Source of the DNA: Saccostrea cucullata
Lineage: Eukaryota
DNA: 64,000 nt
Direction of reading: 5' to 3'
Assembly: GCF_032062105.1 (NCBI RefSeq)
Contig: NW_026920935.1
Span: 1,054,001 to 1,118,000, forward strand
Of the stretch, positions 38,628 through 62,439 are shown one piece after another; position 1 is the first letter of the stretch; the number at the start of each line of letters is the position of its first letter. The notes below the pieces were generated by a model that saw only the letters and a list, made by a program, of their open reading frames with translations, was not told where the DNA came from and searched no databases. The translations under genes were made by a program, and so were the position numbers.

Positions 38628-41600
38628 ATGTCAATTCATCGAGAGGATCCTTCCAAAAAATCAGACAAAAATCCATTCTCAGTGGACTGGATTAATTCCT
38701 GTTATCAACAGACGTTACTTCCAGATGCACCATGGCATGCGGTAAGTCCAGACTGTAGCAGGAATTGTTGAAATACAATATCCTGTACAATTGATGCATT
38801 TGATTCTGAATAAATGAAATAAGTTTTCATTTTATCAGTTAATTACATGATTTGCATGATTTCAGAAATCATAACTACTATACATGAACATAATTTGGTG
38901 TATTGAATTTGGTGTATCCATGAATTAGCACTACACACAAATACACCATTTATGGCAATTATTAATGATGTATTAGTGGTATTCATGAATTAGCACATCA
39001 TTGTCCGTTGAATGCAAAATTATAAATTAATATGCAGGTTATTGTAATGCTATTTTTAAATGCACACATTTTCAAATCACAAGTATATTTGCGAGTGTAT
39101 ATGAAATATGCTTTTTTCCAGATGGAGGCCAAGATTGCACAATCTCTGGCCAGTAAGGTGGAGAAACAGTTCAGTAAACCCGAGAGAAAGGAGGCCCTGA
39201 TTCAGACCCTGGGGGAGGTGTTTGTAGAAAAGTACCTCCCCAAGGCCACATGGAACCCTCAGATACTGGTCAGAGTCTAAAATACATGTACAGATATATG
39301 AACTATCAATACCATAGACTAATGAGATGCATGTAATTGATTTTGGAAATGAAAAGTGCTCACATTTTGCAAGTTTTTAGAATAGCATAATAATTGTTAG
39401 AATTATTAACTGGTATATAAAAGAGAAGCATCTTCAAAAGGATTTCATGTATTTATTTGTTGTTTTTTTTTTTTTTTTGTTGTAATTATTCCCAGTATTT
39501 TTGGATTTTTAAAAAAAATTCTGTATATGACTTTGTATAAAAAACTAATGAATACATTACAAAAACAGGAACCTCCCAATATGACTGCCATGGAGAAACA
39601 GAAGATACTGAAGGAGGCACAGGCCTACCTCAACAGCCAAGTGTATAAGTGTGTCAAGGAGAAAGGCTACAGTGTCATGTTAGGCAAAAATCTCAACACA
39701 AGGTGAGACATCTATTACATTACAGTGTTATGTTAGGCAAAAATCTCAATACAAGGTGAGACACTTATTACATTACAGTGTCATGTTAGGCAAAAATCTC
39801 AACACAAGGTGAGACATCTATTACATTACAGTGTCATGTTAGGCAAAAATCTCAACACAAGGTGAGACATCTATTACACTACAGTGTCATGTTAGGCAAA
39901 AATCTCAACACAAGGTGAGACAAGTATTACATTTTTGGGATTCATATACATCTGGGTTTATTACAAACTTATCAGAGAGTATGTTTGCAATTTTAGGTTT
40001 TATAAATCTTATATCTTTTGATTTGTATGTACCTTTACATTTATAAATTACATGTATATTCTACTGAAAAATTAAAGCTATTCAATGGCAGCATTAAACA
40101 TTCTTCTAATGATGAAGAAGAAAAGTGTGTCAATATATCATATAGATATTCACATATTATATATATCATGTTTACAGCACTACTCAACCTAATGAGTATG
40201 ATCAGTTTCTACAGCACACATATTATACACATGTATATTTACAGCACTACTCAGTCTAATGAGTATGATCAGTTTCTACAGCACACATATTATATACATG
40301 TATGTCATATGTTTACAGCACTACTCAGCCCAATGAGTACGAGCAGTTTCTACAGCATACATACAACATCTTTCTCAGAGGTTTGGAGAGGGAAGAGTAT
40401 AAACAGGAAAATGATCTCAAAGTAAGTGATTAGTCTACATACCAACAAATATCTGTGCCAAAAAAAACCCCTAAAAAATATTTAATAATCTGCAATGTGC
40501 TAATTGCAAGATATATTTAAAAGGAATTATATTTGAAATTGTTTCTGTAAAAAGATTTCTTCCTTTGTACATATTCTTCAGGAGTAAAAAGTTATATGAA
40601 GAATTGAATTTGTTTATTAGTTCATGTAGTCCAGTTGTGCAAAATTTATTCATCAGAGATGCTCCCAATATTGACTGAATTCATCAGGGGTCATTCAAAC
40701 TTCGTCAAATATACTCACAGTGTATGTAAATGAATAAGGCGTAATATATCATGTTTTAAATTATTTAACTCATGAGAAAAACACATGAAGAATGGAAGAT
40801 GTTGGTCTAGATTTGTTTGACTTATTATTAATTTCTGCTAGTAATTCTTTTCTAAACATTGCTAAAAGTTCATACATGTAGTAACATGAAATTCATGTAT
40901 AATTGACAGATGGTTTGCTACAATAGAAAATTTCCTACTTATTACCATTATAAGTTCACAAACACTGTTTATTGTTGTAGAAACAAAAAGAAGATGAGAT
41001 AAAGCTAGAGAACAAACTGAACAGAATGTTAAAGATTCCAGCCCCAAGCCGCGTCAAACCGACAACAGCTGTGTCATCGGTATCCTCCGGCTCTACAGAT
41101 AAACCAAACTCAGCCACAATACGAGGTATTACACATGTATTCATAAAATGATTAATCTCAAACTCCTCTCCATTCAGCCACGTAGGTGATTAATTTATGA
41201 AGTACACTTGGAAATATTATTTGATAATTTTATTAAAATAGACAAAAGTTATAAAAACATCATACAATTTAGAGTATACAGATGTTCCCATAGCTTTCAT
41301 ACCTTTATAGTTTTCCTTTGAAAAACATTATGTACTGTAGTGTAGATATTTTTCTTGAAAATACATTTAATACATTACTTTATTTATTTTCAAATAGCTT
41401 CTCAGTAGTTAAAAGTTATTCCCTGCTAATTATGAACCCTAATTTTAGCATGTATTTTTAAAATCTATATTTTATTTAAAGCTTTTAAATACTCAGTATT
41501 TTGATTTCAGTCTTAATGTTAAGCATTGCAGTATTTCATGATTTAAATAATTTATAAGTTCTTTCTTTTTAAATTGGAGATAGATTAATTTGTTTAAAGA

Positions 41601-44600
41601 AAACACATAAAGAAAAATATGTTTTCTGTTTACTGACAAATCTAGAAGTCAAAGTCTATAATTTTACCCACATAATGAATAAGAATACTGGTTCTCTTTT
41701 GATTAGCTGGTAAAAATAGTGGTGAGTGTGCATGCTTCTGTAAGTTACAGCTAACCTGTCTCAATGTCTGGGTGTTACTGTATGTTATTGACATTAAATA
41801 TGAAATAATGGAGAAAAAAAAAAATGAAACTTCCAAGAATGCAATGAAAACAATCCCTAAATACACATTCATGTATTTGTATCAAAAATGTTTCAAATAT
41901 AGAAGAAATGTTTTTTGTTTTATGTTTATCATTATGTAGTAATCAACCTGTATTTGTTAAATTATGCATATGTATAACAATAGCTAGCCTAGTCCTCTTT
42001 AGTAATTTTGTGAGGAGAGATGTAACAAAAATTTTTTTAAAAAAAGAAGAAGAAGTTCATGAAACTTGATGAAATCTGTTAGTGTGTATAAGATTTCTTT
42101 GTGTGTAGAAATAGATATTACTGTAAATGTATTACATTTGGCTGTGTATTCTTTTCAGCGCTTTTGGTGGAAAGATACTTCCACTAATTCAAGTACAACA
42201 CTAAATGTTTTGTACTTACATGTATATACATAAATAAGAATGATAAGAAATGCGCTAAATTAAATCTACGCTAACTTGTTCAAAACTCAGTTTCCACCAA
42301 ATATCGTACATGCTAGATATAATACATTTGCAGTATATATTAACATAACATGTATCATTACGTGTATTTAATTCCCTATAACAAAGAACCCAGTAATCTG
42401 CATATTCAGTGTTTGCATGTTAACAAGAAGGTGATGGGTGTATGGTCCTATAAACAACTATTGTAATGTCCTTGAATAGAATACATATTGTGGGAAGGAA
42501 TGTGGTATTGAAATTAATAATGCATGCATCTAACCCTAAAAAAATATCAGTTTACTTTATTTTAAACTGAAAAAAGCAAGTGCAGACTTACAATTATGTA
42601 ATAGCACTTAGTGATGAGAATCTTCAGAGTGGAATATTTTGTACATGTATGTATTAAGAAAATAAAAAATTACACATACAGATAAAAAATATAGCAAATT
42701 ATCTACATTATATATTGTACACAATTCTAGGCATGATTCATAAAGTTGAGGGGGATCCCCCGCCCCTGTGGGGGCCTCAGAGTGATCTGATTGGTCGAGC
42801 TGTACAAGCCATTCTTCAGAGGGACCCTAGAAAGTACGATTACGTGGCTGGGAAGATGCATGGTCGTCAGTTACCTGGCTCATTAAGGACATTCATGTGG
42901 TCAGATGAACTCTTCAGAGAGGAGAGGAAGAAAATGCCTGAAGCGTAAGTTTCTTTTATTAAAACCATGGAAGTATTAGTATCTAAAAAATCACGCTTTG
43001 TAAATTGTTTTAATCCATTTAATGTGCAGAGTTTGAAAAGAGCTATAAGTTAATGATTTTGAAATGATTTTAGGAATTTGGAGAAAATTATTCGAGAGAG
43101 ATTTGGAAAAGCAGTCAGTAGAGGCATTCAGGAATTAAGAATCACAAGAGCCACAAACTCACCAATAGCAGGCTTGATTGAAACAGCAGTCATTGAGGTA
43201 TACATCAACATTCTTCTCAATACATACTCTGAGAACTCCTTATTGACAACCAGAGGTAGCTACGATGAACAGGTGCTCTTCTGATTTTCAGACCTACAAT
43301 AAGACGACCAGTATGGTAGCCTTTAAGTCCACAGACCACATGAGGGAGGCGTCGCGCGTGCTGAACATTCTGTATGTTTATGACAGAAGCTATGAGCCCT
43401 ACCTCATCCACTGGTTGTTTCCACTCCAGATAGCGTTCCAAGCTCCATCAGAAAAAACCACAGAGAAAGGTAAGGGGTGAACTGATTACTGTCATGAATA
43501 ATAGTGGGAGCGTATACACTTAAAAGTGGACATATTACAAACATACACTTAAAAGTGGACATATTACAACTGTGTTTTCAAATTATATGTTTATGTTTGA
43601 TATTAATTACTGTAGAAGTACTTTTTTCTGTGTGGTATTAATTTACGCTATGTACGCAGTGACAAATTTTCCACGGAAATTTGTCCAAGCGTTCTCTATA
43701 TAAAAGTAAGGCATATAGTGACAATCTAGGAAATCCGCGTAATTTTCTACACATGGATTAAACAGAAATTGAGATTCTGCGGAATTATGACCCCATGGAA
43801 AAAAGTACGTCTACAGTATCTTATTATTACAAATTATCATATATTACTATGTTCATGTGCATGTACTTGTATTGGGTGCATGAACATATAGCTTTGTTAA
43901 GATTAATTTAATATGGAAACCTATACTTCCTGTAAAATGGCATTGCTCAATTTAAGAGATTGGTGTAAGACATTATTTATTTTTGGATCAGCTTGTATCA
44001 TTGCGTGAGTTGCAAAAATATTTTGACCTTAGCAATTCTCCTAAACATGCATTAATAGAAAGCATATTAACATTTATTGCAGGGGAACATGTGTATGAGT
44101 TGGCAATGTACCTTGACCTTTTGAACTCTAGCTGTTTTCCCACCTGGCCACAAGTATTTGCCATTGCTGAGCAGGTTATGATGACCTTGAGCTTGTCTGA
44201 CCCTGACCTTTACACTCACTTGAAATCCATTGCCAAGACAAATATGAAGGTCAATAAAAAGGTAGGAGGAAAGTTTTTTTCTCAACTGCAGAGGAAAATA
44301 ATATTTTCCCCTTAAATCAATTTAATACAATCCTTTAAACTCAAACATCAAGAGGAATCAGAGCTTGAGGATACAAAATGATTTTTTCCTTGGAACAAGC
44401 TAGCAAGTAAACAATGATGTTTCTTTGGATAAAATTACAGGAGTTTCTGATGCATCTGATAAGTTCGGAGAAGGCCAAAGCCGAGGAACTACTGAAGGCC
44501 ACCCCTGGGAGTAAGAGGGAGGAGTACATGTCAAATGAACTGTTGGCTGACCCCCTCGTCTTCATCAGGAGATGGATTGGAGAGGTACTGGTTTAGTCAC

Positions 44601-47600
44601 TGTAGCTGTAATGTACATATAAAAAATATGGTAATATAAATATGATAATAAACAAATGTGTTTATTGTCATGTAGTAAGTACACAGTCAAAGAATAGCTA
44701 GAAAGATTGTCTTACACCAGTAATACCAATGTTTCTCTGATACACTTTGTATGTATGGATACATGAAACTTTAATCCACTTAAGAAATAAATTTTACACT
44801 CTACAGGTATATGTTCTACATTTACCTGCAGTTTCATTTACAGATATAATGTTTACCAGATTTGACATCTTATATTTGAATCTGTTTTGTTTTTCCCCAG
44901 GGTTTTGTGAGTGTGCTGGACACCCCTGCTGTGATGTACATCTGGGACCAATGCTTCATGCAGGGCTGGCAGCCCAGTGTTCTGAAACACTTCAGTCTAG
45001 CCCTGCTGGAACTACTCAGGGAAAAGTTCATGAATGCTCGAGATTATATGCAAATGAAGGAGGTTAGAAATGGGGAGTTATCCAAAAATATTTAAATAGC
45101 ATTTCAGAAGTGAATTTTAAGTTAAATAAACAGAACATAAGGTGAGCAAACAGGATTGTTATAATTTTCTAAATAAAGTATTTTGATTTTTAGGTTTTCC
45201 TAAGAGAAGCTTGTAAACTGTATACGGTGGACGTCCAGATGGCCTGGATTCATCTGGAAAATGGGAAGGATATCCTGGAAATTCCCTACCTCAACAGACA
45301 AAGGCCAGGGTAAATACACATACCTCACTGCAAATACATACTATCTATTACAAGGAAAGGTTTAGTTGTCATTTTGTCAAACATACATTACATACATTAT
45401 GTTTGTGCTTTACAACATAAATTGGAGATGAAGGAAACTGACATAAAATGTCAGTTTATTACTATGCATTGATTTTGATATTGATTTTGTAGTACACCTG
45501 GATCAAGGCTGGGACAGGTACAAAGTGCCCCGCCCACCCCTGGTATCCCAGGATTCCTCAACCCCTGTGGGCTTAAAGACATCATACTTAGACTTATCAT
45601 TCCTTCTGAGGTGGTTGAAAGGGTAAGTACTATACATGTATACATATTGTACATCTAAGCTAATACTACATGGAATTCCTACAATCACAGTATGTTAAAG
45701 AATAAGTTTTGTACATGTATACAGTTTTTAAAGCTTTAGATTGCAAACATTTTCATAATGATAATACAACAATCACACTATCTTAATTCTGCAGCAAATA
45801 AAAAAAACATTTAAATGATAACAATGGCATTAGTTTCCTGTTAATTTCTTCTGATTTTGGTTTACAGGAACAGTGGTTGGCTAATGTAGATGCTGAAGGT
45901 CTGCAGATCCACACCCATGCCTACTTTGGAAGTGTTAAGCTCCGATCTCGTCTCTCTATGGGGAAAGCTGTCACAACATCCATAACAAAGGACAACTATG
46001 GAAATACTATATATGAGGTTCATTTTTATGAGGACAAGTTTGTATTTGACAGTTTGGACATTTCAGAACTGGATGTTGAGAGGGAGTTAGGTGCTTTTCC
46101 TTACGCTATTGTTCGTGTGGAGTACAGGAAGCCAGGCCCAGAGGCATTAAGTAAGTCCTACTGTTCTATTTCATTAACATTTAATTGTAAATGATGTGAT
46201 TCAACTTCTTTACAGTTGGTTATAATAAGAATATGCATTGATTTAATAAGTGATTGCAGTTTTAATTATTGTAGAAAGCTTTCATTCAAAAACTGTAAAA
46301 ATGGATATTCAGACATTATTTACTGGAAAAAATCACAAGAAGTTTGTATACATGGAAATATTCCTTTCTGTAATACAAGGATAATTTTTTTTTTTAGATT
46401 CTGAATTATTGTGTACAAAGTGTATTTCATGCATAAGCAGTAATTTCTATGTTTCTAGTTTAAGAGTTGTATCTCACAGTTAACATAAGTACACACTTGG
46501 CTTGTCTTGTATTTCAGGAACCAGTGTACCGCTTGGCTGGGCCAGAATCCCTTTGTTCCAGCGTGCGTCCCGTGGGGGCAGGTCCTCAGTCGACTCTCTG
46601 GCTAATGTGGAGTGGTCTCTACAGGACGGGGACTTTGTGTTCACGCTCCACCCCGGGGCACTCCCCCAGAATCTGATCTCGTCAGATACAGCCTCCCCTG
46701 TACCAGAACAACAGGAAGGTGGGTTTTTCCCAAATGTTTACTTTTTTAGAAAAATTTTGTTTTTCCTCAGTTTGAAGAAGACTTTACTGCAGGGTAATGA
46801 AGAGCTTAGTAATGATATATATATAAATGAGTAGATAAATATACTGAATGATATTTATTGTCCCAGGCTTAATGATAAGTTATGGTTACAATCATTGACA
46901 CTGTATTTGACTTACCTCAGTTTCTTTTTGATACTTCAGACACTGTCCTTGGATATAACTCAGAGGTGGTGGTTATTGTGTATGATCCTCGCAATGAGCC
47001 TGAGGGTAGGGCCAGACCTAAGGGGGTGACTCCTATCCCCACACTACCTGCCGGGTCCACCAATCAGGTACCACCACTGGCTACCCACTCCCCACGACAC
47101 AGTCCAGTCCGAAAACCTAGGTTAGCTACAGATCAAAGTCTAAGATTTCTTGAATTTAGTGTAGATATGTTTCTTATATCCATAATTTCTTAAGCTGTTT
47201 TATCTTTTAAACTTCTCTCTTCATTCAAAGAAAGTGGGATCACAAACTTATTTTAATTTTTTGATAGTCCCAAACCCAAGCCTGCTCCTAGAAGGACCCC
47301 TGTTGTTAAGACCCCTAAACCCCAGGATAGTGAGGAGCCATGGGTCGAGCCTAACTCCACCACCATGGCTAGTAACCCCATGCCCACAGGTTTGTCAGAG
47401 GCATTTGACTTCTACATTGACAGTGTTCGCTTCATTCCTGATAACTCCTCAATGATTAAGGTGAGTGTAAAAGACTCGACATTTATTGTTACATTATGTT
47501 GATCTGTAATCCAACAGTGAGTAGATGATGCCTTCATCACAGCCTATGTGATTTATGACACTTTTACAGTGGAAAAACAGAGAGCAACTGAGTTTATCTT

Positions 47601-50600
47601 TTAGATTTATAAGATGTACATGTACTTCAATTTACTCATCATACTATCATTCCAACAACTACCAGATATTCCAATGCGACAGCTCTCACAGAAATACATT
47701 GAAAGTTAGTTTTCATAAGAATGATGCTGTTTTTCTCCCTTGAAAGATATACATGTACGATGTTAATTAGTTGCTTAACCTATGACAACAACGGATAGTA
47801 CTTGCATTATACATATCTATACATTATCAACTTTATCTGTGAGATTTTGTTCTGTTCCTACAGGTGACAGGGCTGATTAAGACGGCTAATGACGCCAAAC
47901 TTCTCCTGGCCCTACCCCTCCTGAACAGTCCGGCCCGATGTCCCATGTTTGACTTTAAACTGACCGTTAATGACCAGAAGAAGAAGATGGACCCGGACAT
48001 GGTCATCTTTCTGAGGGTTTACACTGAGGACGTGCTCACGGACAAAATCTCCGTCATTGGCAGCTGTTTTGTTCCAGTGTTCAAGGTGTTTGTTAACTTG
48101 TACCACCAACATTGTATTTAATGCTCATGGGATTATTTTCCTGCATACCTATTTAATTCCTGCAAAACAGAACAACATTTAAGAATCATCAATATACAAA
48201 TATGTTTTAGGATGGCAAGTTAAATGTAGGTGGTACACAGCTGAGATTGAGGAATGGGGTCCCTCCCACTAAAGCCAAGAATCTGGTTAATGACCTAGAT
48301 TCCTTCCCGGCTGTCCCAGCCTGCTCCATCCTAATCAGACTTCTGCCAGCACAACAGGTGTGTATCATGCAGTGTAGTAACCCCCTCTCTTCTCCCAGGG
48401 GGGAAAATGCCAATTTTTTTACAATCTGTACTGTAAATCACTTTTTATTCGCGAGAACTTTATTTTCGCGTAATTACGCGAGACAGTATGCTCGCAAAAA
48501 TTTCATTCTCGCGTATGATAGAATACCTTAGGATTATATAGTGCAATGACCACAATTTGTGAAAATTTTGTCTCGCTTATAAAAAGTCAATGACTATCTC
48601 GCGAAAATAAGGTGTCGCGAAAATTAAGTGATCTACAGTTATCATTGAATTCTGTAATTGTACATAAATTGGTACATGTATATTCAAAATTTAGCACAAT
48701 CACTGGGTATTCAGTTGTTAGCATATTCATGAATTAGTGCAATATACTAATGTGTCATATATTGTATAAATAAATGATTCCTTAGCTGTATCCAAAGGCT
48801 TTAAAATATAAAGTCCGCTTTTTTTAAGTACACGTACAGTATTTCTGCAAAATTACATGTTCATACTTTTGATAATAATTAAAATTATTACATTGTACAT
48901 GTACACATGTAGTTATTGCCAAAGAAAAGGATATAGTAGTAAATGCAGAATAAAATGTACATTTGTATGAAGTACCAGTATTTTGCTCTAACGTCATGTA
49001 CATGTTACCTATATTTTAGGGAGTAGTCCCAATGCCACCCTATTCCTCTGGTTATTACTTTTCGGAGCCAGCCCGCCCCACAGTATCAGAACAGAGGGTG
49101 TTCAGCAGCTACAAGGAACATTTTAACTATCCCAAATCAGTCAGGGAGATGATTCAGAGAATACAACAGTCTAATGAGGTGGCAGTCGGTAAGCTTAGGT
49201 TCAGAGGGAGTATGATGTTGGAGGAGGATTAGTGTGTTAGATAAAGCACTTCAGCCCTGTTGTGAAGTTATGATATACATGCACCTTTAAATGTTGTTAT
49301 TGAATTCAGACATACATGTACATGTACCGTTGAACCTCAGTATCGCGATCACTGATATATTGAATGTGATGGATATGTCAGAGTGATGGAGAATTCCCAG
49401 CCAATTTTTCTTTGAGAATTTTTTTTAAAATCACAGTATCTCAATTCTCAAATGATATTAGGTTTGAATGTAGTATGAGAACATTTTGAATGTAGTATGA
49501 GAAATTTACATATAACTCTAAGATTTTAATCTCCAAATGTCATATTTAGGAGTACTTTTACTCAGATATTAGCATTAATTTGCTTGTTTATCAACAGATG
49601 AAGAAGACGATGCGTTACTACAATGGCTTCAGGATCAGCTGGATGTTAAAAAACAGGGAGCTAAAGCGGTGGCTGACAACCTTCCTCTGGCTCAGTCTGT
49701 CAGGTACAGGGTCAAAATGGGGCTCAATGCCAGAGTGGTCCAGGCCTATGGACTACCAGGTAATTATCTCCAACCAATAGAATCGTAAGCATGAGAATTC
49801 GGAACAAAGCTTCCAAAATATTATTATACTGGCACATGAAGTTAATATTGGATCTGTCAGAATCAGATGATTTGTTTACATTGTAAGATTCTTTATAATG
49901 ACCTGCCACTCCCACCCTCTTTAGATGGCTACTACGTCCACTGCTTTGTTCGGGTCTCCCCGGGAGAGAAGGTGCTAGATATGGAGGAGACTCCAGAGGG
50001 GTACGGAAAGGAAGAAAAGTTTGTCACACTGAAGCATGATTATGACAGCTTCCAAATTGCTCCTAAATTTCTTGATGACCACAAAGTAAGATTTTAAAAT
50101 GTATATAAAGAATTTTAAAATCAAATGTAATGTATTTTATTATAACGAAATTTTAAGTGAAATTTGTCTGTTGCAAAAGATTATCTTTTGGATGTAGGAT
50201 ATTTTTGCCTAATACCTTCTAATACTGTATAAGTGGAAATTTTAAGGAGAGGCAAATTTAGCGATTTGTCCTTAAAAATTAGTATTTTTTTCTAGCGAGA
50301 TGTAATTTTAGAAATTTCAAAATGCTCACTAAAAATAGCTAATACAAATACAAAAATACAATTAATTTTTAATTAATTCAATTTAGCAATCTCAACACCT
50401 TCGCTAATAATGCCAAAATTAAATCCTTGCTAAACATTCTGCGTATATGGTATCTACTCTCAGTTTTTATGCAGATTTTAACTAAAGTAAATTTAGATTT
50501 AAAGGATTTAAATGGGAATGATTATAGGAGGGTTATTTTCCTGTTGAGTATCACTAACAAGTTTTGTCTGAAACACAAAATTACAGGTAGAATGGTCTCC

Positions 50601-53600
50601 TTTTCAAATTTAAATTTCTTAAATTTGCAAAGATAAAAAATTATCTTACTGCAGTATTTTCCAGAAAACCATTTTCTTCCAAAGTAATTGACCTTTGGAT
50701 ATGAATTTAGGCATTGAAAATGTGCATCTTTGCCAGTTTGATTAATGCTGTGATGGTGTATTATTTATTGATATTTTAATATTTTCAGCTGTTACACCCT
50801 TTCTATGACAATTACTCCTGCCTGATTATTCAGTTGTTTGGTTTGGACCTGATTTACCGGATGAAACCAGAACATGATGTACCAGGAACCCTCCACTCCA
50901 TAAAGAACGGGGACCTGGTTCTGGGGGATGAACAGATCCTGGCCTGGGGGGTAGTGCCCATGTTTGAGGGGTGAGCAATTTATACTTACTGAATATACCT
51001 GCATAAAGTACTGTGAAATCACTAATTTTCGTGGGTGTTTAATTTTCGTTGTTTTTGAGGTATGAATAGACGAATTCATGTCCACCACGAAATGGAAATT
51101 TTCATATGTACAACTACTAAAATGTTCATCCACATTTTTTCCTTCAACCATGAAAATTTGACCCCATGAAAATATGTGATTTTACAGTAGATACGCTGTA
51201 TCATAAGAAAAGGAGCACAAGTCAAATGTATTACTTGGCTCCCCAATGTATATGTTGGCATTCTGGAAATTACTTGTATCTTCCTTTGAACAAATACTTT
51301 TGTTTAAATCACTTTTGTTAATTGTGGTGATATTTTTTTTTCTTTAGAAACTGTGTAGCCTCGGGAACACATGAGGTTCCCCTGTTCAAAGGAAAGCCAC
51401 CGGTAGGAATTGTACAGGAGTTCACTCAAAGGAATGCCAAAAATGTAATTCAATCATGGAAGTGGGAGAAAACCCAGAAAATGGTAATGATTCAGTTATT
51501 CACTAAGTCATTGATGATTTTAGCTTCTTAAAGAGAAGTTAGACATGTTTCAGTAACTTATAAAGTTAACCCTTTTTAAATTTACATAAATGTATTGTCA
51601 GATGTTATTTGCAAAGGGCTTTTATCAAAAATAAATAACAGATAATCTGATAAAGCCTACAAAAAAGTGTTTATTTGTTCATCCTTCACAAACTTTACTG
51701 GAATGATAATACAGGGTAAATGAAGTACTGTAGTACTGTATATATCCAAATTTTTGTAAGAGACAGATAGTACATGCACCATATTTGGTATTTATAGGCC
51801 AGACAGAATTTTCATGAATTTTTGGTATTGTTTATAATCTACGCAAATAAAAACATACATGAAAATGAAATTTTTCAAACAGACCATCTCATGTAATTAC
51901 CAGAAAATAAAGTTTCCTGCTTGCAAATAAAAAATATTTTCAGTATTGAGGGCTCTAACGGAACAAAAGTTTTCCTATCACTTTAGAAATACCTAGATGT
52001 GGAAAATTTCTTTTAGCTTCCTGATTACAAGTGGGCTTTTTACACTGTCAGTTTTTACTGTTTCATGTATTTATATATGTTTTTGGATAGATTTTAACTC
52101 TTGTTATACTGTGAAATTTGATTTTTAAATGTCTTATCAAAATTAACCTTGGTTATGTCTTTCCTACAGCCCAATGCCAGCTTGACTGTCTCACTGTGGG
52201 ATGGTCATTTTGAACAAGATGAATTACCTGTAAACCCTGTAAGTCTCTGTTGAATAATGAACATTTTGAATTGACTTACATACAGTTTTATGATTAATGT
52301 ACATTGATTCTATAAATAAGGCTGTTTAATGAAGTCAAACTCCAGAAGTTTTCAAAGCAACTTTGTGTATGAAGATATTCAGATAATAGAGGAATTAGGT
52401 GATTCTGCAAAAGCTCTTAAGAGTTTGATTTAGGAACAAGCAAAGCTATATATGGTAAGTGTCTCTACATAAATATGACAAGTAATGTTTTGACTTGTGA
52501 TTTACAGACCTTTAAGTACCTGTTAGAAGCTGCGGGGACTCAGTCCACATACCTTCAGGGGAGGAAACCACCACCAAAGAATGCCAAGAAAATCTCCAAC
52601 TTTGTGGTGGATAATTTGGAGCAGAAATACAAGAAACTGGGGACCAACAGTTCAGTGTATGCCACAGAACAGAAGTTCTTTGATGACCTCATCACAAAAA
52701 CCTTCTACAATCTTGTGGTTTGTATTTGTTCCTAATTTGAGGGGGAAAGCATATTTTGAGATTTTTTTTTACATATAGAATGTTTTTAATTTTGCATTTT
52801 TAAGTTGTTACTGTCAAAAATCCTACAGCTCATTATAAATTTTAACTTTAATGCCTTATTTCAATATTTAAAAAGTGGGAGGATATAGTGATGGAGGTGC
52901 CCATCTACCAGTTTGTCTGTCTGTTACACTAGGGGGTACCCATCTTATCCACAACTCCTCCTTTACAGGCTTTACTACTGAATAATGAGTCTTTCCCAGG
53001 ATCTTTATTACATAGTGCCATTGTGTAACTCCGCTTTATGTTTTAATCAGACAAATATTTATAAACCATGAACTTTGCCATGTGACTTTTATGGGAGCAG
53101 GGAACTTCTTTTTCTGAGCTCACAGTAGCCTCTAGTTTAAATTTTGGTTGAAATCTAATGATAAAACCAACATTTTGAATACGCGATGGACCCCAGTTGT
53201 TTTAAAAATTGATATTTTACATTTTCAACGTCTGTTCTTTGGCATAATATTTAAATGAAATATTATCTTGTATGCAATGGTTTGTTTTATAGTTGATAAT
53301 TATTTATTTTAGGTCAACTCATTTTAATTTTTTTTTCTTGGGTATGAATCATTGTGATGTTGTGTATGCACCTTTCTCTTCCTGATAAAAAATATTTCTC
53401 TATGGAAAGACATATAAGTAAAAAAAAAAATGGATTGGTCCCTTTAATAAGCTCTAAATCCTGATGTCAAGCACACTGCAAAAATCAGACAATTCATAAA
53501 TTTCATGGCTATCATTATTAGATATACACATTTACCACTGTCTATACTCCAGATATTGGCATTTTGATGTTGTTAACTTTAAGGATTTATGGATACATAT

Positions 53601-54662
53601 TATCTTTTAAAATTACTTCCATAACATTTCCACTTTTAAAAACAAACACTGTTAAACTTTTATAAAGTATTTTTTTGAGGTACTATACATCTCAGCATTA
53701 AGGAGAAATTGAGTATACAGAGTAAAATACACTTATAGCAAAGTGCCAGGGATGGACAATTTTGCATAGTTACAAGTCTAATTCATTATATCCATTATGT
53801 TTGAAATTGTATTTAGTCATGGGGAATGAAAATCACTTTGCTGTAAATGTCAATTCATTATAAGCATGTTCGCTATTAGCATGCTTTACTGTTTGTTGAT
53901 ACACGTAGAAAAAAATTCCAGTGCTAAAAGTTGTACAATGTATACAACAGCTTAAGTATACTTTATGTACTTGTAACTGTACACTTTTATTGTATGGGAA
54001 AGCTGAGTAGATTTAGACAAAATATTCAGGGGTTAACCGGCTGACATCAACTTTCTTATAGATCACCTTAAAAAGGAGCAAATCACTATTAAATAGTGGA
54101 ATTCCTTGCAACTAAGTATTCTTCTAATTGTCAAGTTTCTCTCTGCGATTTATGAAAAGAATGACAGAAAAATTCCAAATTATTCCTTATAACCAAAAAT
54201 TATTTAAATTAACTGAATCCCTTGTTAGCAAGTTTTACTGTAATAATAATTGTCATGTACAACACTACAATTTGAAACACACACTTGTAATATGTACATT
54301 TTAACATTTCTTTGTTTCACATTAACAATATATGCCCTAACCCTTTATCACTTTTATCACACAAGTGGGGTCAGTGCACTTAGGAATATTTCCAATGGTA
54401 ATTTTTAGAGATTTGATGGAAAGATATTTTCTATTTGTAAAAAGTTTTTCTAACCTTGTTAATATTTTTGAAGACTATAGATTGTTATTGTTATTTATCT
54501 TAAAGCTTCTTGTGACTTAAATATTTTTTAAAAAAATCCAAAAGATCATTGCAATGTAAAAATCAACAACTCCGTAATTCTTTGAAACAGTTTGTTAATT
54601 TTTCTTTTCTTTATCTTCCAAAGGAGGATGCTTTGATGAATGCTGGATATGGCCCACTTTAG
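38628..54662 (+). CDS. Uncharacterised ~1,410-aa protein: N-terminal helical region, degenerate TBC/Rab-GAP-like domain, Pro-rich linker and about three C2-like beta modules
   Basis: 27 phase-consistent exons: 38628-38741, 39122-39268, 39569-39702, 40319-40421, 40981-41125, 42731-42944, 43074-43197, 43292-43469, 44083-44261, 44441-44584, 44901-45062, 45194-45309, 45493-45622, 45868-46150, 46518-46718, 46940-47120, 47268-47460, 47864-48085, 48211-48357, 49020-49188, 49598-49759, 49925-50085, 50789-50970, 51348-51483, 52170-52238, 52508-52717, 54624-54662 (4,245 nt). TBC-like LPGSLRTFMW, DPDLYTHL, RWIGEGFVSVLDTPAVMYIWDQCF. C2-like LGWARIPLF, IGSCFVPVF, LAWGVVPMF. Confidence 0.85.
39668..39932 (+). 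repeat. 53-bp minisatellite x5 spanning an exon end and splice donor
   Basis: Unit TACAGTGTCATGTTAGGCAAAAATCTCAACACAAG|GTGAGACATCTATTACAT starts at 39668, 39721, 39774, 39827, 39880. Confidence 0.95.
40150..40362 (+). repeat. ~70-bp tandem repeat x3 spanning a splice acceptor and exon start
   Basis: TTTACAG|CACTACTCA..AATGAGTA(T/C)GA.CAGTTTCTACAGCA with acceptors ending at 40177, 40244 and 40318. Confidence 0.92.
42119..42335. mobile_element. TA-flanked MITE
   Basis: TACTGTAAATGTATTA ... TAATACATTTGCAGTA. Confidence 0.65.
43608..43818. mobile_element. TA-flanked MITE
   Basis: TACTGTAGAAGTACTTTTTTC ... GAAAAAAGTACGTCTACAGTA, ~20-bp TIR. Confidence 0.8.
48429..48640. mobile_element. TA-flanked MITE
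   Basis: TACTGTAAATCACTTTTTATTCGCGA ... TCGCGAAAATTAAGTGATCTACAGT. Confidence 0.75.
51009..51189. mobile_element. TA-flanked MITE
   Basis: TACTGTGAAATCAC.AATTTTCGTGGG ... CCCATGAAAATATGTGATTTTACAGTA. Weaker relatives at 50223-50452, 51734-51945 and ~53716-53892. Confidence 0.75.
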
Positions 54663-55769
54663 AACTAAAGGTTGGCATACAATTCTGGCTTACACTGGCA
54701 TTACATAGCTAGAAAGAAAAAAACCCATTAACAGCTTTATTGAACGGTGTTCAAGCACCTGCATTTTGACCATTATTTGGAGAGATGCCTGTTGATCACA
54801 GACTGGAATACTGCAGTGTTGGTCACTTCCTGTTTTCATTGTGAGAAGTAAAAAGTTAGATCAAATAGAAAACATACATTGAATTAACAAAGAAATAAAA
54901 ATTAAAAGGTAGGCTGATTTTAAATTAATGACATGTACATACACCCAATACAAATATAGATTTTTTAATGGAAATAAAGATTGGTCATTTGAAATTTTTA
55001 AAAAATGATTATGTTTAAGATATGTGTTTCATTTTTTGATAAAATTCTCTTGTAAGATGAAACATATAAATGCCAATTTAATGATGTGAATAATATTGTT
55101 TTAGAAATGATTGGAGTGATAAATTTGATTATATGGTTTTAGAAATAGATACATGTAAAATTCTTCATGTACATTTAATTGTACATTAGAGTATGGAACT
55201 GTATGTATGGAAGGTTAGGATCTGTGTATGCTAGATTAACCTAAGAAACTTTCCTATTTGTATCTGTATTGTCATGACTGGTGCAATTACATGTATGTGT
55301 ATTTTTATTTTTAGTTCACATATACTGGTTGTGAGTAGTTTTTTTTATTAATAAAAGGAAGTTAAATGAAAAAATGATCACCTATATATATTGATTTTAT
55401 TGGATTTGATTTCATTTTATTGACATGGAAGTCAAGTGAAGAGCATTTAACAAGTAGACTGTTTTATTCAGGTTTTTGTTTCTGTCTACAAGGTATCTCA
55501 AGAAGAAAAAAAAATGATTCCAGTGTTTGGCAAAAAATATTTCAGGGAAGAATTAAAAGAAAATGCTGAAGTGGATTTCCTCAGAATCTGAATATATTGT
55601 TAACAAATATAATCAGAAATATGGTCAAACATGTCATTGCCGATTCACAACCACCTGTATTTAGCTAATTCCAGATATTATATAAATTACTGAATTTCTG
55701 TCAAAAGTTTTGTGATCCTGGGACCATATTTGTGTATTAAGTAATCCTCTTTCTTACACAAGCAATATT

Positions 55770-56010
55770 TTCTGACATAAAGCAATGCCAAGCACTTTGA
55801 AGTGAAAGCTGTGGGTCCTTTCAGATGAGACCTTAAAAACCCAGGCCCCTTGTCATGGTAGGTGTAGGCAATAAAGAGACAATAAAGATCTCTCATTGCT
55901 CCATGGCCTGGAGTGCAGAGTAAAAGTAAAAATTTGAAACCCTTCTCCAGTATATTGTATATGGTGACGTCTCTATATGAGTGAAAAACTCGAGAATGGG
56001 GTGCATCAAC
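55770..56010 (+). mobile_element. Degenerate V-domain SINE
   Basis: GGTCCTTTCAGATGAGACCTTAAAAACCCAGGCCCC ... GGTGACGTCTCTATATGAGTGAAAAACTCGAG matches the SINE at 2501-2753. Confidence 0.7.
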
Positions 56011-60896: not shown

Positions 60897-61505
60897 TCAA
60901 ATCACGAGATTTCCAAAATGATCGTTTATTCTCTCCAAATGATCGGTGTCAGGAACAAATTCGGGCGGCGATATCCTCTGAAGTTTGGGCACTGGGGGTA
61001 AGGATTTCACCTCTAACTTACAGAAAGAGAGTATTTTCTCACATGTATCGAGTCTGTCTGGCAGAAAAAGTTCCATGCTTCTGGCTTCTTCTAAGTTTCT
61101 TATGACGTCCTTTCTTTGTTGTTCTAAGAGTAAAACATCATCCACTCGTTTTTCTATCACTTGTTCAAGGAATTGCTCCTTAGCTTTTTTGACTGCTGCC
61201 TCCAGTTTTTCTGCATGGATTACGATATCAGTTTCGATGATACGGTATTGGTCTTTCATGACTTGCTCTTCGACAGCTATATCCATTTCCAGTTGTTGAT
61301 ACAGGGAAATGGCGTTTCTCACCATATCATGTTCTTTGGCGATTAATTCCCCCTTAGATTTACAAAGATCTTCCAGGTCTTCCACTTCATGTTTTTTGTG
61401 GAAACTCACGAGACATTTTCCACAAATCACGGCTTCACATTGCTTGCAAAAGAATTCACAAGTATGGCTTTCATGAGCCTTGCACTTTGGTAGAGTAATT
61501 TCCAT
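60897..61505 (-). CDS. Intronless B-box zinc finger plus coiled-coil protein (short TRIM-like, 202 aa)
   Basis: B-box2 CKAHESHTCEFFCKQCEAVICGKCLVSFHKKH, then a heptad-rich helix; ends FVP..INDHFGNL, the linker that usually precedes a C-terminal domain in TRIM-NHL proteins. Confidence 0.85.
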   Translation of the reverse strand: MEITLPKCKAHESHTCEFFCKQCEAVICGKCLVSFHKKHEVEDLEDLCKSKGELIAKEHDMVRNAISLYQQLEMDIAVEEQVMKDQYRIIETDIVIHAEKLEAAVKKAKEQFLEQVIEKRVDDVLLLEQQRKDVIRNLEEARSMELFLPDRLDTCEKILSFCKLEVKSLPPVPKLQRISPPEFVPDTDHLERINDHFGNLVI

Positions 61506-62439
61506 TTTCTTTGTGAAATATTTATAATTTCTTCAGTGCAGAAAGTCCACAAAATAACGATGATTATTCATTGGTTTTAATTTTGAAAACGCAATTTTTA
61601 ATTGTTCTAGAAGTTTCTAGAAAAAAATTAACCAGAGCGACATTGAGACCTTATCTTCTATGCGTCAATTCAAAATTGTTTAAATAAGGTACATAGACAT
61701 AGATTTAAAGTGTCTATTCAAATGCTTTAGTGCGCATTTACAAGACCAATGTTGTGGAAAAAATCAATAAACAGAAGAGTTTAAATATAGTTCTTTCCCT
61801 ACCGTTTTTTATCAAATTTTTCTTGTTAAGACTCAGTTACTTATATCATTATCTGTTAAATTCATATCCCCCTCCCCAAGTCTAGGGTTCAGACCCAAGG
61901 GACGGATAATTTGGTCAAATTTGTAATTCTTAACACTTCTGAAAATTTTATTCAACGTTTATAGACATCAAACAGCCAATCATTTACATCTTATGATGAG
62001 CAGAAAAGTCTTTTTAAAAATAGGTATAATTTTGTCTCCTGGTACCACAGACCATTCCATAGGTCGAGACTCTTCTCGTGTAGCAGACTGTGTACCTTAA
62101 TTGTTAATTTACCTTAATATCTGGTTTAAACATTTAGTAAGCAAATTACATGCATGATGTCAGTTAGCAATGGACCTTAAATCAAATATGATATTGTGTA
62201 GTTTATATTCGTAGGGCAATATCTTTCACCAAAGGGCGACAAATACAAACTTCACTATACTACTTCTAGTTTTTTTTCTATGCATACCCTATGTGATGCA
62301 AGGACTACCTGGGTGCAAGTGAAGATTGTGTAGCACTGCCTTAAGTGAATACCTAGGCATAGTTGCCAGGTGGGCTACAGACAGCTGAATTGATGAAATA
62401 CATTGTATATGGATATAACAAATAGTTTTCAAGTCCATT

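Follow-up and report, generated by a model that had tools for sequence, protein, structure and literature searches.

The 64,000-nucleotide stretch of the oyster Saccostrea cucullata analysed here (the window: contig NW_026920935.1 of assembly GCF_032062105.1, positions 1,054,001 to 1,118,000; all coordinates below are window positions) carries at 38628..54662 on the forward strand a gene for a protein of 1,414 amino acids (aa), in which a predicted TBC (RabGAP) fold with both catalytic fingers replaced is followed by three predicted C2 folds. This gene represents an undescribed pseudo-TBC/C2 subfamily, a new domain combination. TBC classes without the fingers are already known, WDR67, TBC1D24, TBC1D19, TBC1D23 and TBC1D7 among them, and none as described in the available part of PMC3655817 carries a C2 domain. 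The animal trafficking toolkit thus gains a TBC subfamily that joins a pseudo-TBC to a C2 array. Our literature search found no paper naming the family or six orthologue LOC identifiers; supplementary tables, which could list the gene, lay outside it. No full-length match to a characterised protein was found either; such a match was one of the outcomes that an earlier note on this DNA had named as counting against its proposal.

The exons were rebuilt from the window, reading 37500-56000. The earlier note had described an intact frame of 27 exons and about 1,410 aa, and the rebuilt model agrees with it: 27 coding exons, GT..AG at 26/26 introns, and an open frame of 4,245 nucleotides (nt) with a single terminal stop, whose product is identical over 1414/1414 residues to XP_062597302.1 (uncharacterized LOC134258744 isoform X2, Saccostrea cucullata). 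All the motifs quoted in that note are found in the product, LIETAVIETY and RWIGEGFVSVL arising only through splicing. The coding exons, all on the + strand, are 1-5 at 38628-38741, 39122-39268, 39569-39702, 40319-40421 and 40981-41125; 6-10 at 42731-42944, 43074-43197, 43292-43469, 44083-44261 and 44441-44584; 11-15 at 44901-45062, 45194-45309, 45493-45622, 45868-46150 and 46518-46718; 16-20 at 46940-47120, 47268-47460, 47864-48085, 48211-48357 and 49020-49188; and 21-27 at 49598-49759, 49925-50085, 50789-50970, 51348-51483, 52170-52238, 52508-52717 and 54624-54662. RNA junctions cover 14 of the 26 introns among the rows listed (73 further rows) and 4 others in a second table (15 further rows). 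Additionally, a single 5,621-nt RNA contig from run X2, which comes from a close relative with exon differences of several per cent, agrees with the spliced model at 10/10 checked offsets and includes an alternative 15-nt micro-exon (41707..41721, +) that adds 5 aa in isoform X1. The gene looks single-copy, since each of two exon queries of the oyster's own genome found one locus. It is real, expressed and without a name. Two intronic tandem repeats were also seen to copy splice sites, one at 39668-39933 (53 bp x5) duplicating the end of exon 3 together with its donor, the other at 40151-40363 (67 bp x3.1) duplicating the start of exon 4 together with its acceptor; of these copies, the exon 3-exon 4 junction in the RNA rows listed joins the first donor to the last acceptor.

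The TBC fold occupies aa 231-575 (42778..45274, +) and was recognised by VIA, Foldseek and the Pfam model PF00566, in line with the TBC scaffold that the earlier note had claimed from short motifs. An AlphaFold model of aa 1-600, built on a 58-sequence alignment (predicted local distance difference test, pLDDT, 80.5; predicted template modelling score, pTM, 0.77), matched TBC1D22A (2qfz) best in VIA, with Z 21.9, an rmsd (root-mean-square deviation) of 3.8 and 279 residues aligned. The top 12 VIA rows were all TBC-fold chains (Z 13.9-21.9) and the next row fell to 6.2. Foldseek gave three matches at E<=0.001, every one a TBC domain, with 4p17 at E 4.6e-5, so that the predicted structure does hold a TBC fold when checked in the way the note had proposed; Gyp1p is a further fold likeness by Foldseek. 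The order of helices and loops in the model agrees with the canonical arrangement. At the sequence level the domain is strongly diverged, because Pfam sees its C-terminal third only (29.4 bits in XP_062597302.1 against a gathering cut-off of 25.2) and the family profile matched just 572 of 1.84 billion proteins. The PF00566 cut-off was passed by 4/12 homologues tested. Searches of PDB sequences gave nothing significant: the full protein reached a best E of 0.92, the TBC profile had 0 matches, and a broad profile reached E 0.033, to TBC1D4. With the canonical RabGAPs TBC1D22A, USP6NL and 4P17 (a Chlamydomonas flagellar RabGAP) the oyster protein shares the two-subdomain fold (Z 20.7-21.9), motif A and the RxW/WD helices at 10-16% identity, motif A and R489-x-W491 being strongly conserved across the family. 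Unlike them it has C2 domains, a helical domain at the N-terminus and an extra helix around aa 440-480, and it shows IxxAxxE and YEP in place of IxxDxxR and YxQ.

These replacements lie at I321-x-x-A324-x-x-E327-T328 (43177..43294, +; E327 codon 43195-43197) and at Y361-E362-P363 (43391..43399, +). In an alignment of 139 domain-covering sequences out of 226 non-redundant proteins, a set rich in molluscs and hence not independent, position 327 is Glu in 111/139 and Arg in 0/139, position 324 is Ala in 95 and Asp in one, and position 363 is Pro in 113 and Gln in none, Gln standing at 362 in 14 sequences and at 364 in five. Near the site, DxxR occurs in 1/139 and [YF]xQ in 5/139, none of them in register. 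Profile comparison with hhalign paired IETAVIET with the canonical xxKDVLRT (A324 with D, E327 with R) at E 0.0016, with a probability of just 16%, and E327 and P363 are spaced 36 apart, where five distinct canonical TBC genes of the oyster have 35-38 between Arg and Gln. The loss of both fingers, read by the earlier note from the oyster letters, is therefore supported by the alignment, not by residue-level superposition, and the outcome which that note had set against itself, Arg or Gln at the catalytic positions, did not occur. That the whole family keeps an acidic residue where the Arg finger would be suggests selection for a non-catalytic role.

The three C2-like segments reported in the earlier note proved to be three C2 folds on predicted models, of the PI3K/AIDA/NPHP4 type. 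The model of residues 606-1414, made on the 97%-identical S. echinata orthologue (pLDDT 86.2, pTM 0.67), places in order C2a, a low-confidence proline-rich linker, C2b, helices, C2c and a terminal helix. C2a (aa 606-813; 45548..47004, +) matched AIDA-C2 2qz5 by VIA with Z 10.4, rmsd 3.2 and 135 aligned residues. After the linker (about aa 814-890, 24% Pro; 47005..47382, +) comes C2b (aa 894-1039; 47392..48357, +), the best conserved of the three, which matched a Munc13 C2 (2cjs; Z 9.8, rmsd 3.1, 125 aligned). C2c (aa 1136-1322; 49717..52208, +), searched inside the 809-aa model only, matched PLC-beta (2zkm; Z 8.6, rmsd 3.0, 120 aligned). PI3K C2 domains came within 1 Z of the top matches of the region, hhalign related C2c to C2a with a probability of 85%, and the PI3K_C2 Pfam cut-off is exceeded in the homologues from lamprey and Schistosoma. 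A PDB sequence search with the C2 profile gave 0 matches at E<=10. In C2b, D903 is present in 91/93 sequences. Read against a PKC-C2 pattern of five acidic Ca2+ ligands in loops 1 and 3, C2b keeps D910 (87/93) and D972 (67/93), with T970 at a third site, or roughly two of the five; this pattern is assumed and not drawn from superposed structures, which makes the count less secure.

The whole protein lands on just two clusters of the ESM Atlas, both 'hypothetical'. For aa 890-1414, with TBC clusters excluded, the nearest were two unnamed clusters, followed by jouberin-like (0.93, 180 features), NPHP4_C2_2nd (0.92, 173) and AIDA (0.91, 167); CCDC17_C, RPGR1_C (0.86) and PI3K_C2 fell below 0.9. 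The C2 domains of AHI1, NPHP4 and RPGRIP1 are ciliary, and that of AIDA possibly so, according to the part of PMC3495828 available to us.

Upstream of the TBC fold, aa 15-182 form an N-terminal helical domain (38670..41028, +) with conserved W21, P32 and W36, for which a structure search of the predicted model gave no convincing fold match. Packing against the TBC domain is probable, because the pTM of 0.77 exceeds expectation for two free domains. At the other end, the C-terminal helix (52652..54659, +) ends in GYGPL, a terminus found exactly in 19/75 long homologues. A predicted complex of the TBC domain (226-582) with C2b-C2c and the tail (893-1414) reached 0.27, below the mark of 0.34, and was counted neither way.

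Among known proteins TBC1D23 serves as the working analogy for an adaptor role. It likewise has a TBC fold with both fingers lost and accessory domains; its match to the oyster TBC has Z 18.0 and its motif A aligns with the oyster family at E 0.9. As far as the account in the available part of PMC7274447 goes, both its fingers are absent (Q88, T124), it has no GTPase-activating protein (GAP) activity and it is an adaptor that binds the golgins golgin-97/245. TBC1D23 carries rhodanese and PH domains, whereas the oyster protein has C2 folds after the TBC; no rhodanese or TBC1D23_C region was found there by Pfam search or in the predicted models. Identity with TBC1D23 was rejected, as the oyster has a separate TBC1D23 on other contigs, whose exons score unremarkably against the family profile. 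Furthermore, the family hidden Markov model, run against 3,273 translated segments of oyster loci, gave weak C-terminal matches (best E 0.001), none TBC1D23-specific. TBC1D31/WDR67 and TBC1D32/BROMI are TBC scaffolds tied to cilia. The accessible portions of the sources describe WDR67 as lacking R and/or Q (PMC3655817) and TBC1D31 as a centrosomal TBC scaffold in ciliogenesis (PMC8126939). XP_062597302.1 has no WD40, EF-hand or BROMI (PF14961) Pfam match; identity with BROMI was rejected on the missing PF14961 match and on an oyster BROMI gene on a separate contig (C15223). The C2 folds of AHI1/jouberin, NPHP4, RPGRIP1(L), AIDA-C2 and PI3K-C2 are, as those of the oyster protein seem to be, of non-PKC type, and XP_062597302.1 has no Pfam match above cut-off to the jouberin, NPHP4, RPGRIP1, AIDA or PI3K C2 families. 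None of the ciliary C2 proteins is given a TBC domain in the main text of PMC3495828, as far as that text was available, where 'TBC' and 'RabGAP' occur 0 times.

The family is older than animals and is kept in most aquatic phyla, and it did not turn up among named entries from the chief model lineages. A protein search with exon 8 matched 35 longer proteins, and the distribution given here rests on that search and on the best 150 of the 572 profile matches. Named members come from spiralians (bivalves, gastropods, chiton, cephalopods, brachiopod, nemerteans, annelids and bryozoan), from deuterostomes (amphioxus, hemichordates, echinoderms, lampreys, sharks, bichir, paddlefish, gar, bowfin, eels/tarpon/bonefish, frogs and caecilian) and from corals. 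More distant matches, for which the species was found in 13/20 looked up, include the ichthyosporean Chromosphaera perkinsii, the sponge Corticium, Seison, the orthonectid Intoshia and Schistosoma, together with the arthropods Limulus, spider, decapods, stomatopod and ostracod. No named amniote (mammal, bird), clupeocephalan fish (zebrafish group), insect (fly) or nematode (worm) member is among the matches listed; three tetrapod-clade and several arthropod-clade profile rows carry no species name, and the absence from these groups is thus unproven. Going unseen in the main model lineages may explain why the family has no name, and the frog members open it to localisation and knock-down.

The family looks single-copy, and a quick tree, built on 87 domains that each span over 240 profile positions and omitting shorter fragments and most mollusc rows, broadly follows species relationships. 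Common to the family is a core of N-domain, TBC and C2b/c, the C2 part scoring weakly in Chromosphaera; C2a was picked up in spiralians and deuterostomes and went undetected in the coral, arthropod and lamprey members scored. Some sponge and crustacean models end after the TBC, which may reflect gene-model splits. A metagenome scan for the family gave 7 loci, and on one coral-like contig (L032:1552-2502) most of the TBC (aa 231-494) lies in one exon, against five in the oyster. The label 'ANK2' on Branchiostoma lanceolatum protein P0001 was rejected, as this protein belongs to the pseudo-TBC/C2 family and carries 25 repeated stretches of its exons. The TBC block is duplicated in Lingula protein P0036, and the repeats in both proteins are probably assembly or annotation artefacts.

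Taking the predicted structures and the finger positions together, we consider that the protein is probably dead as a GAP and serves membrane trafficking as an adaptor, not as an enzyme. C2b-C2c, with C2a where present, would dock on anionic membrane without Ca2+, a mode of binding suggested because only about two of the five acidic C2 ligands remain. Together the N-domain and the pseudo-TBC would make a single platform able to hold a GTP-loaded Rab or a tether without switching the Rab off, as TBC1D23 holds golgin-97/245, and hydrolysis would be disfavoured by the Glu that is conserved where the Arg finger should stand. By analogy it may work most like TBC1D23, yet it stands outside that class.

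As for its cellular site, we tentatively name the ciliary base or transition zone as the most likely place, and otherwise the Golgi/endosome system. The sole positive evidence for cilia is the Atlas likeness of the C2b-C2c part to jouberin, NPHP4 and AIDA. Several points weigh against a ciliary site. The Atlas scores express language-model likeness, carry no E-value and lack calibration for parts of proteins; a search allowing up to 2 mismatches found no X-box near the gene, and none from 27305 to the window end; the Tetrahymena centriolar TBC chain was the weakest TBC match by VIA (Z 13.9); no named ciliated-protist member is among the matches identified in the best 150 of 572; and decapods keep the gene, whereas amniote members were not found. 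The earlier note's idea of a Rab effector or scaffold, possibly ciliary, thus stands as far as the pseudo-TBC and the three C2 folds go, and its ciliary part leans on look-alikes that carry no E-value, with the X-box absent. A bolder version, doubtful as we see it, is that of a pre-animal ciliary-base adaptor in which the Arg-to-Glu reversal would hold ciliary Rab-GTP, the transition-zone-type C2s would serve as anchors, and several lineages would have lost the gene. If this were true, independent losses in amniotes, most teleosts, insects and nematodes would have caused it to be overlooked by most model-organism screens, and a ciliary protein of this kind would be a cilium component beyond the reach of mammal-, fly- and worm-centred inventories.

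The same evidence has to be weighed against other explanations. The protein could be a purely structural transition-zone or basal-body scaffold, its pseudo-TBC binding no Rab and its C2s linking the membrane to axonemal or centriolar components, in the manner of TBC1D31/WDR67 or NPHP4. Its nearest C2 look-alikes are of the jouberin, NPHP4 and RPGRIP1 types, and the gene is kept in Intoshia and Schistosoma, both of which have ciliated stages. TBC1D31 itself is a centrosomal scaffold in the portion of PMC8126939 available. However, the oyster TBC does not resemble the centriolar TBC chain in particular, the C2 profile found no PDB sequence at E<=10 even though axonemal entries are many there, and core transition-zone C2 proteins date to the last eukaryotic common ancestor according to the available part of PMC3495828, whereas the named members here are holozoan; on balance we regard such a scaffold as unlikely. 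Less likely still is an active, non-canonical RabGAP using shifted residues R359 and E/Q362 as fingers. Such a shifted pair has to be considered because position 362 is Glu or Gln in 109/139 (E 95, Q 14) and position 359 is Arg in 68/139 (Lys in a further 12). These counts weigh against a dead GAP, as do the low hhalign probability, a YxQ loop register ambiguous by 2 residues and the mollusc-heavy alignment, and the strong conservation of motif A and R489-x-W491 would also suit an enzyme. Against activity, position 359 is Gly in 37/139, frog rows included, a conserved Glu occupies the spot where Arg neutralises phosphate charge, and similar substitutions in TBC1D23 accompany no GAP activity in the account that the available part of PMC7274447 gives.

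The remaining explanation concerns the upstream neighbour, SPRING1/C12orf49 (PF10218), whose last four exons lie at 37276..38429 (+) and whose stop precedes the ATG of the pseudo-TBC/C2 gene by 198 nt. The two proteins could be partners in a Golgi lipid pathway, co-expressed from one bicistronic transcript, which we hold to be very improbable. RNA contigs of three studies join the SPRING1 last exon, the spacer and exon 1 (38338-38741), AATAAA/ATTAAA is absent from the spacer, a Mytilus edulis gene model fuses both genes, which makes the adjacency common to oyster and mussel, and SPRING is described as Golgi-resident in the part of the literature available. Nevertheless, a contig spanning two genes is not proof of one transcript, raw-read depth falls to 1-3 in the spacer, the linkage is known from two bivalve families only, and 0/7 metagenome loci have a SPRING1 match, just one of them (L031) reaching the 5' end, with about 300 nt upstream. 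The thinly covered spacer holds one TATAAA and three upstream ATGs, and overlapping untranslated regions and a bicistronic SPRING1 mRNA would both agree with the data. The GAP-dead adaptor is the reading we prefer.

Elsewhere in the window, at 24690-27417, a 156-bp satellite forms two arrays, of 7.6 and 3.6 copies, with near-perfect RFX X-box-like palindromes; the window has 26 X-box-like matches against 7 expected, most of them inside this satellite. Exons at 13127-14833 and 8813-9187, 24-30 kb upstream of the pseudo-TBC/C2 gene, resemble what we take to be a tektin and a JmjC-domain protein, respectively. Lastly, a 211-aa open frame at 60897-61532 (-) shows a B-box/coiled-coil-like pattern and is presumably TRIM-like.

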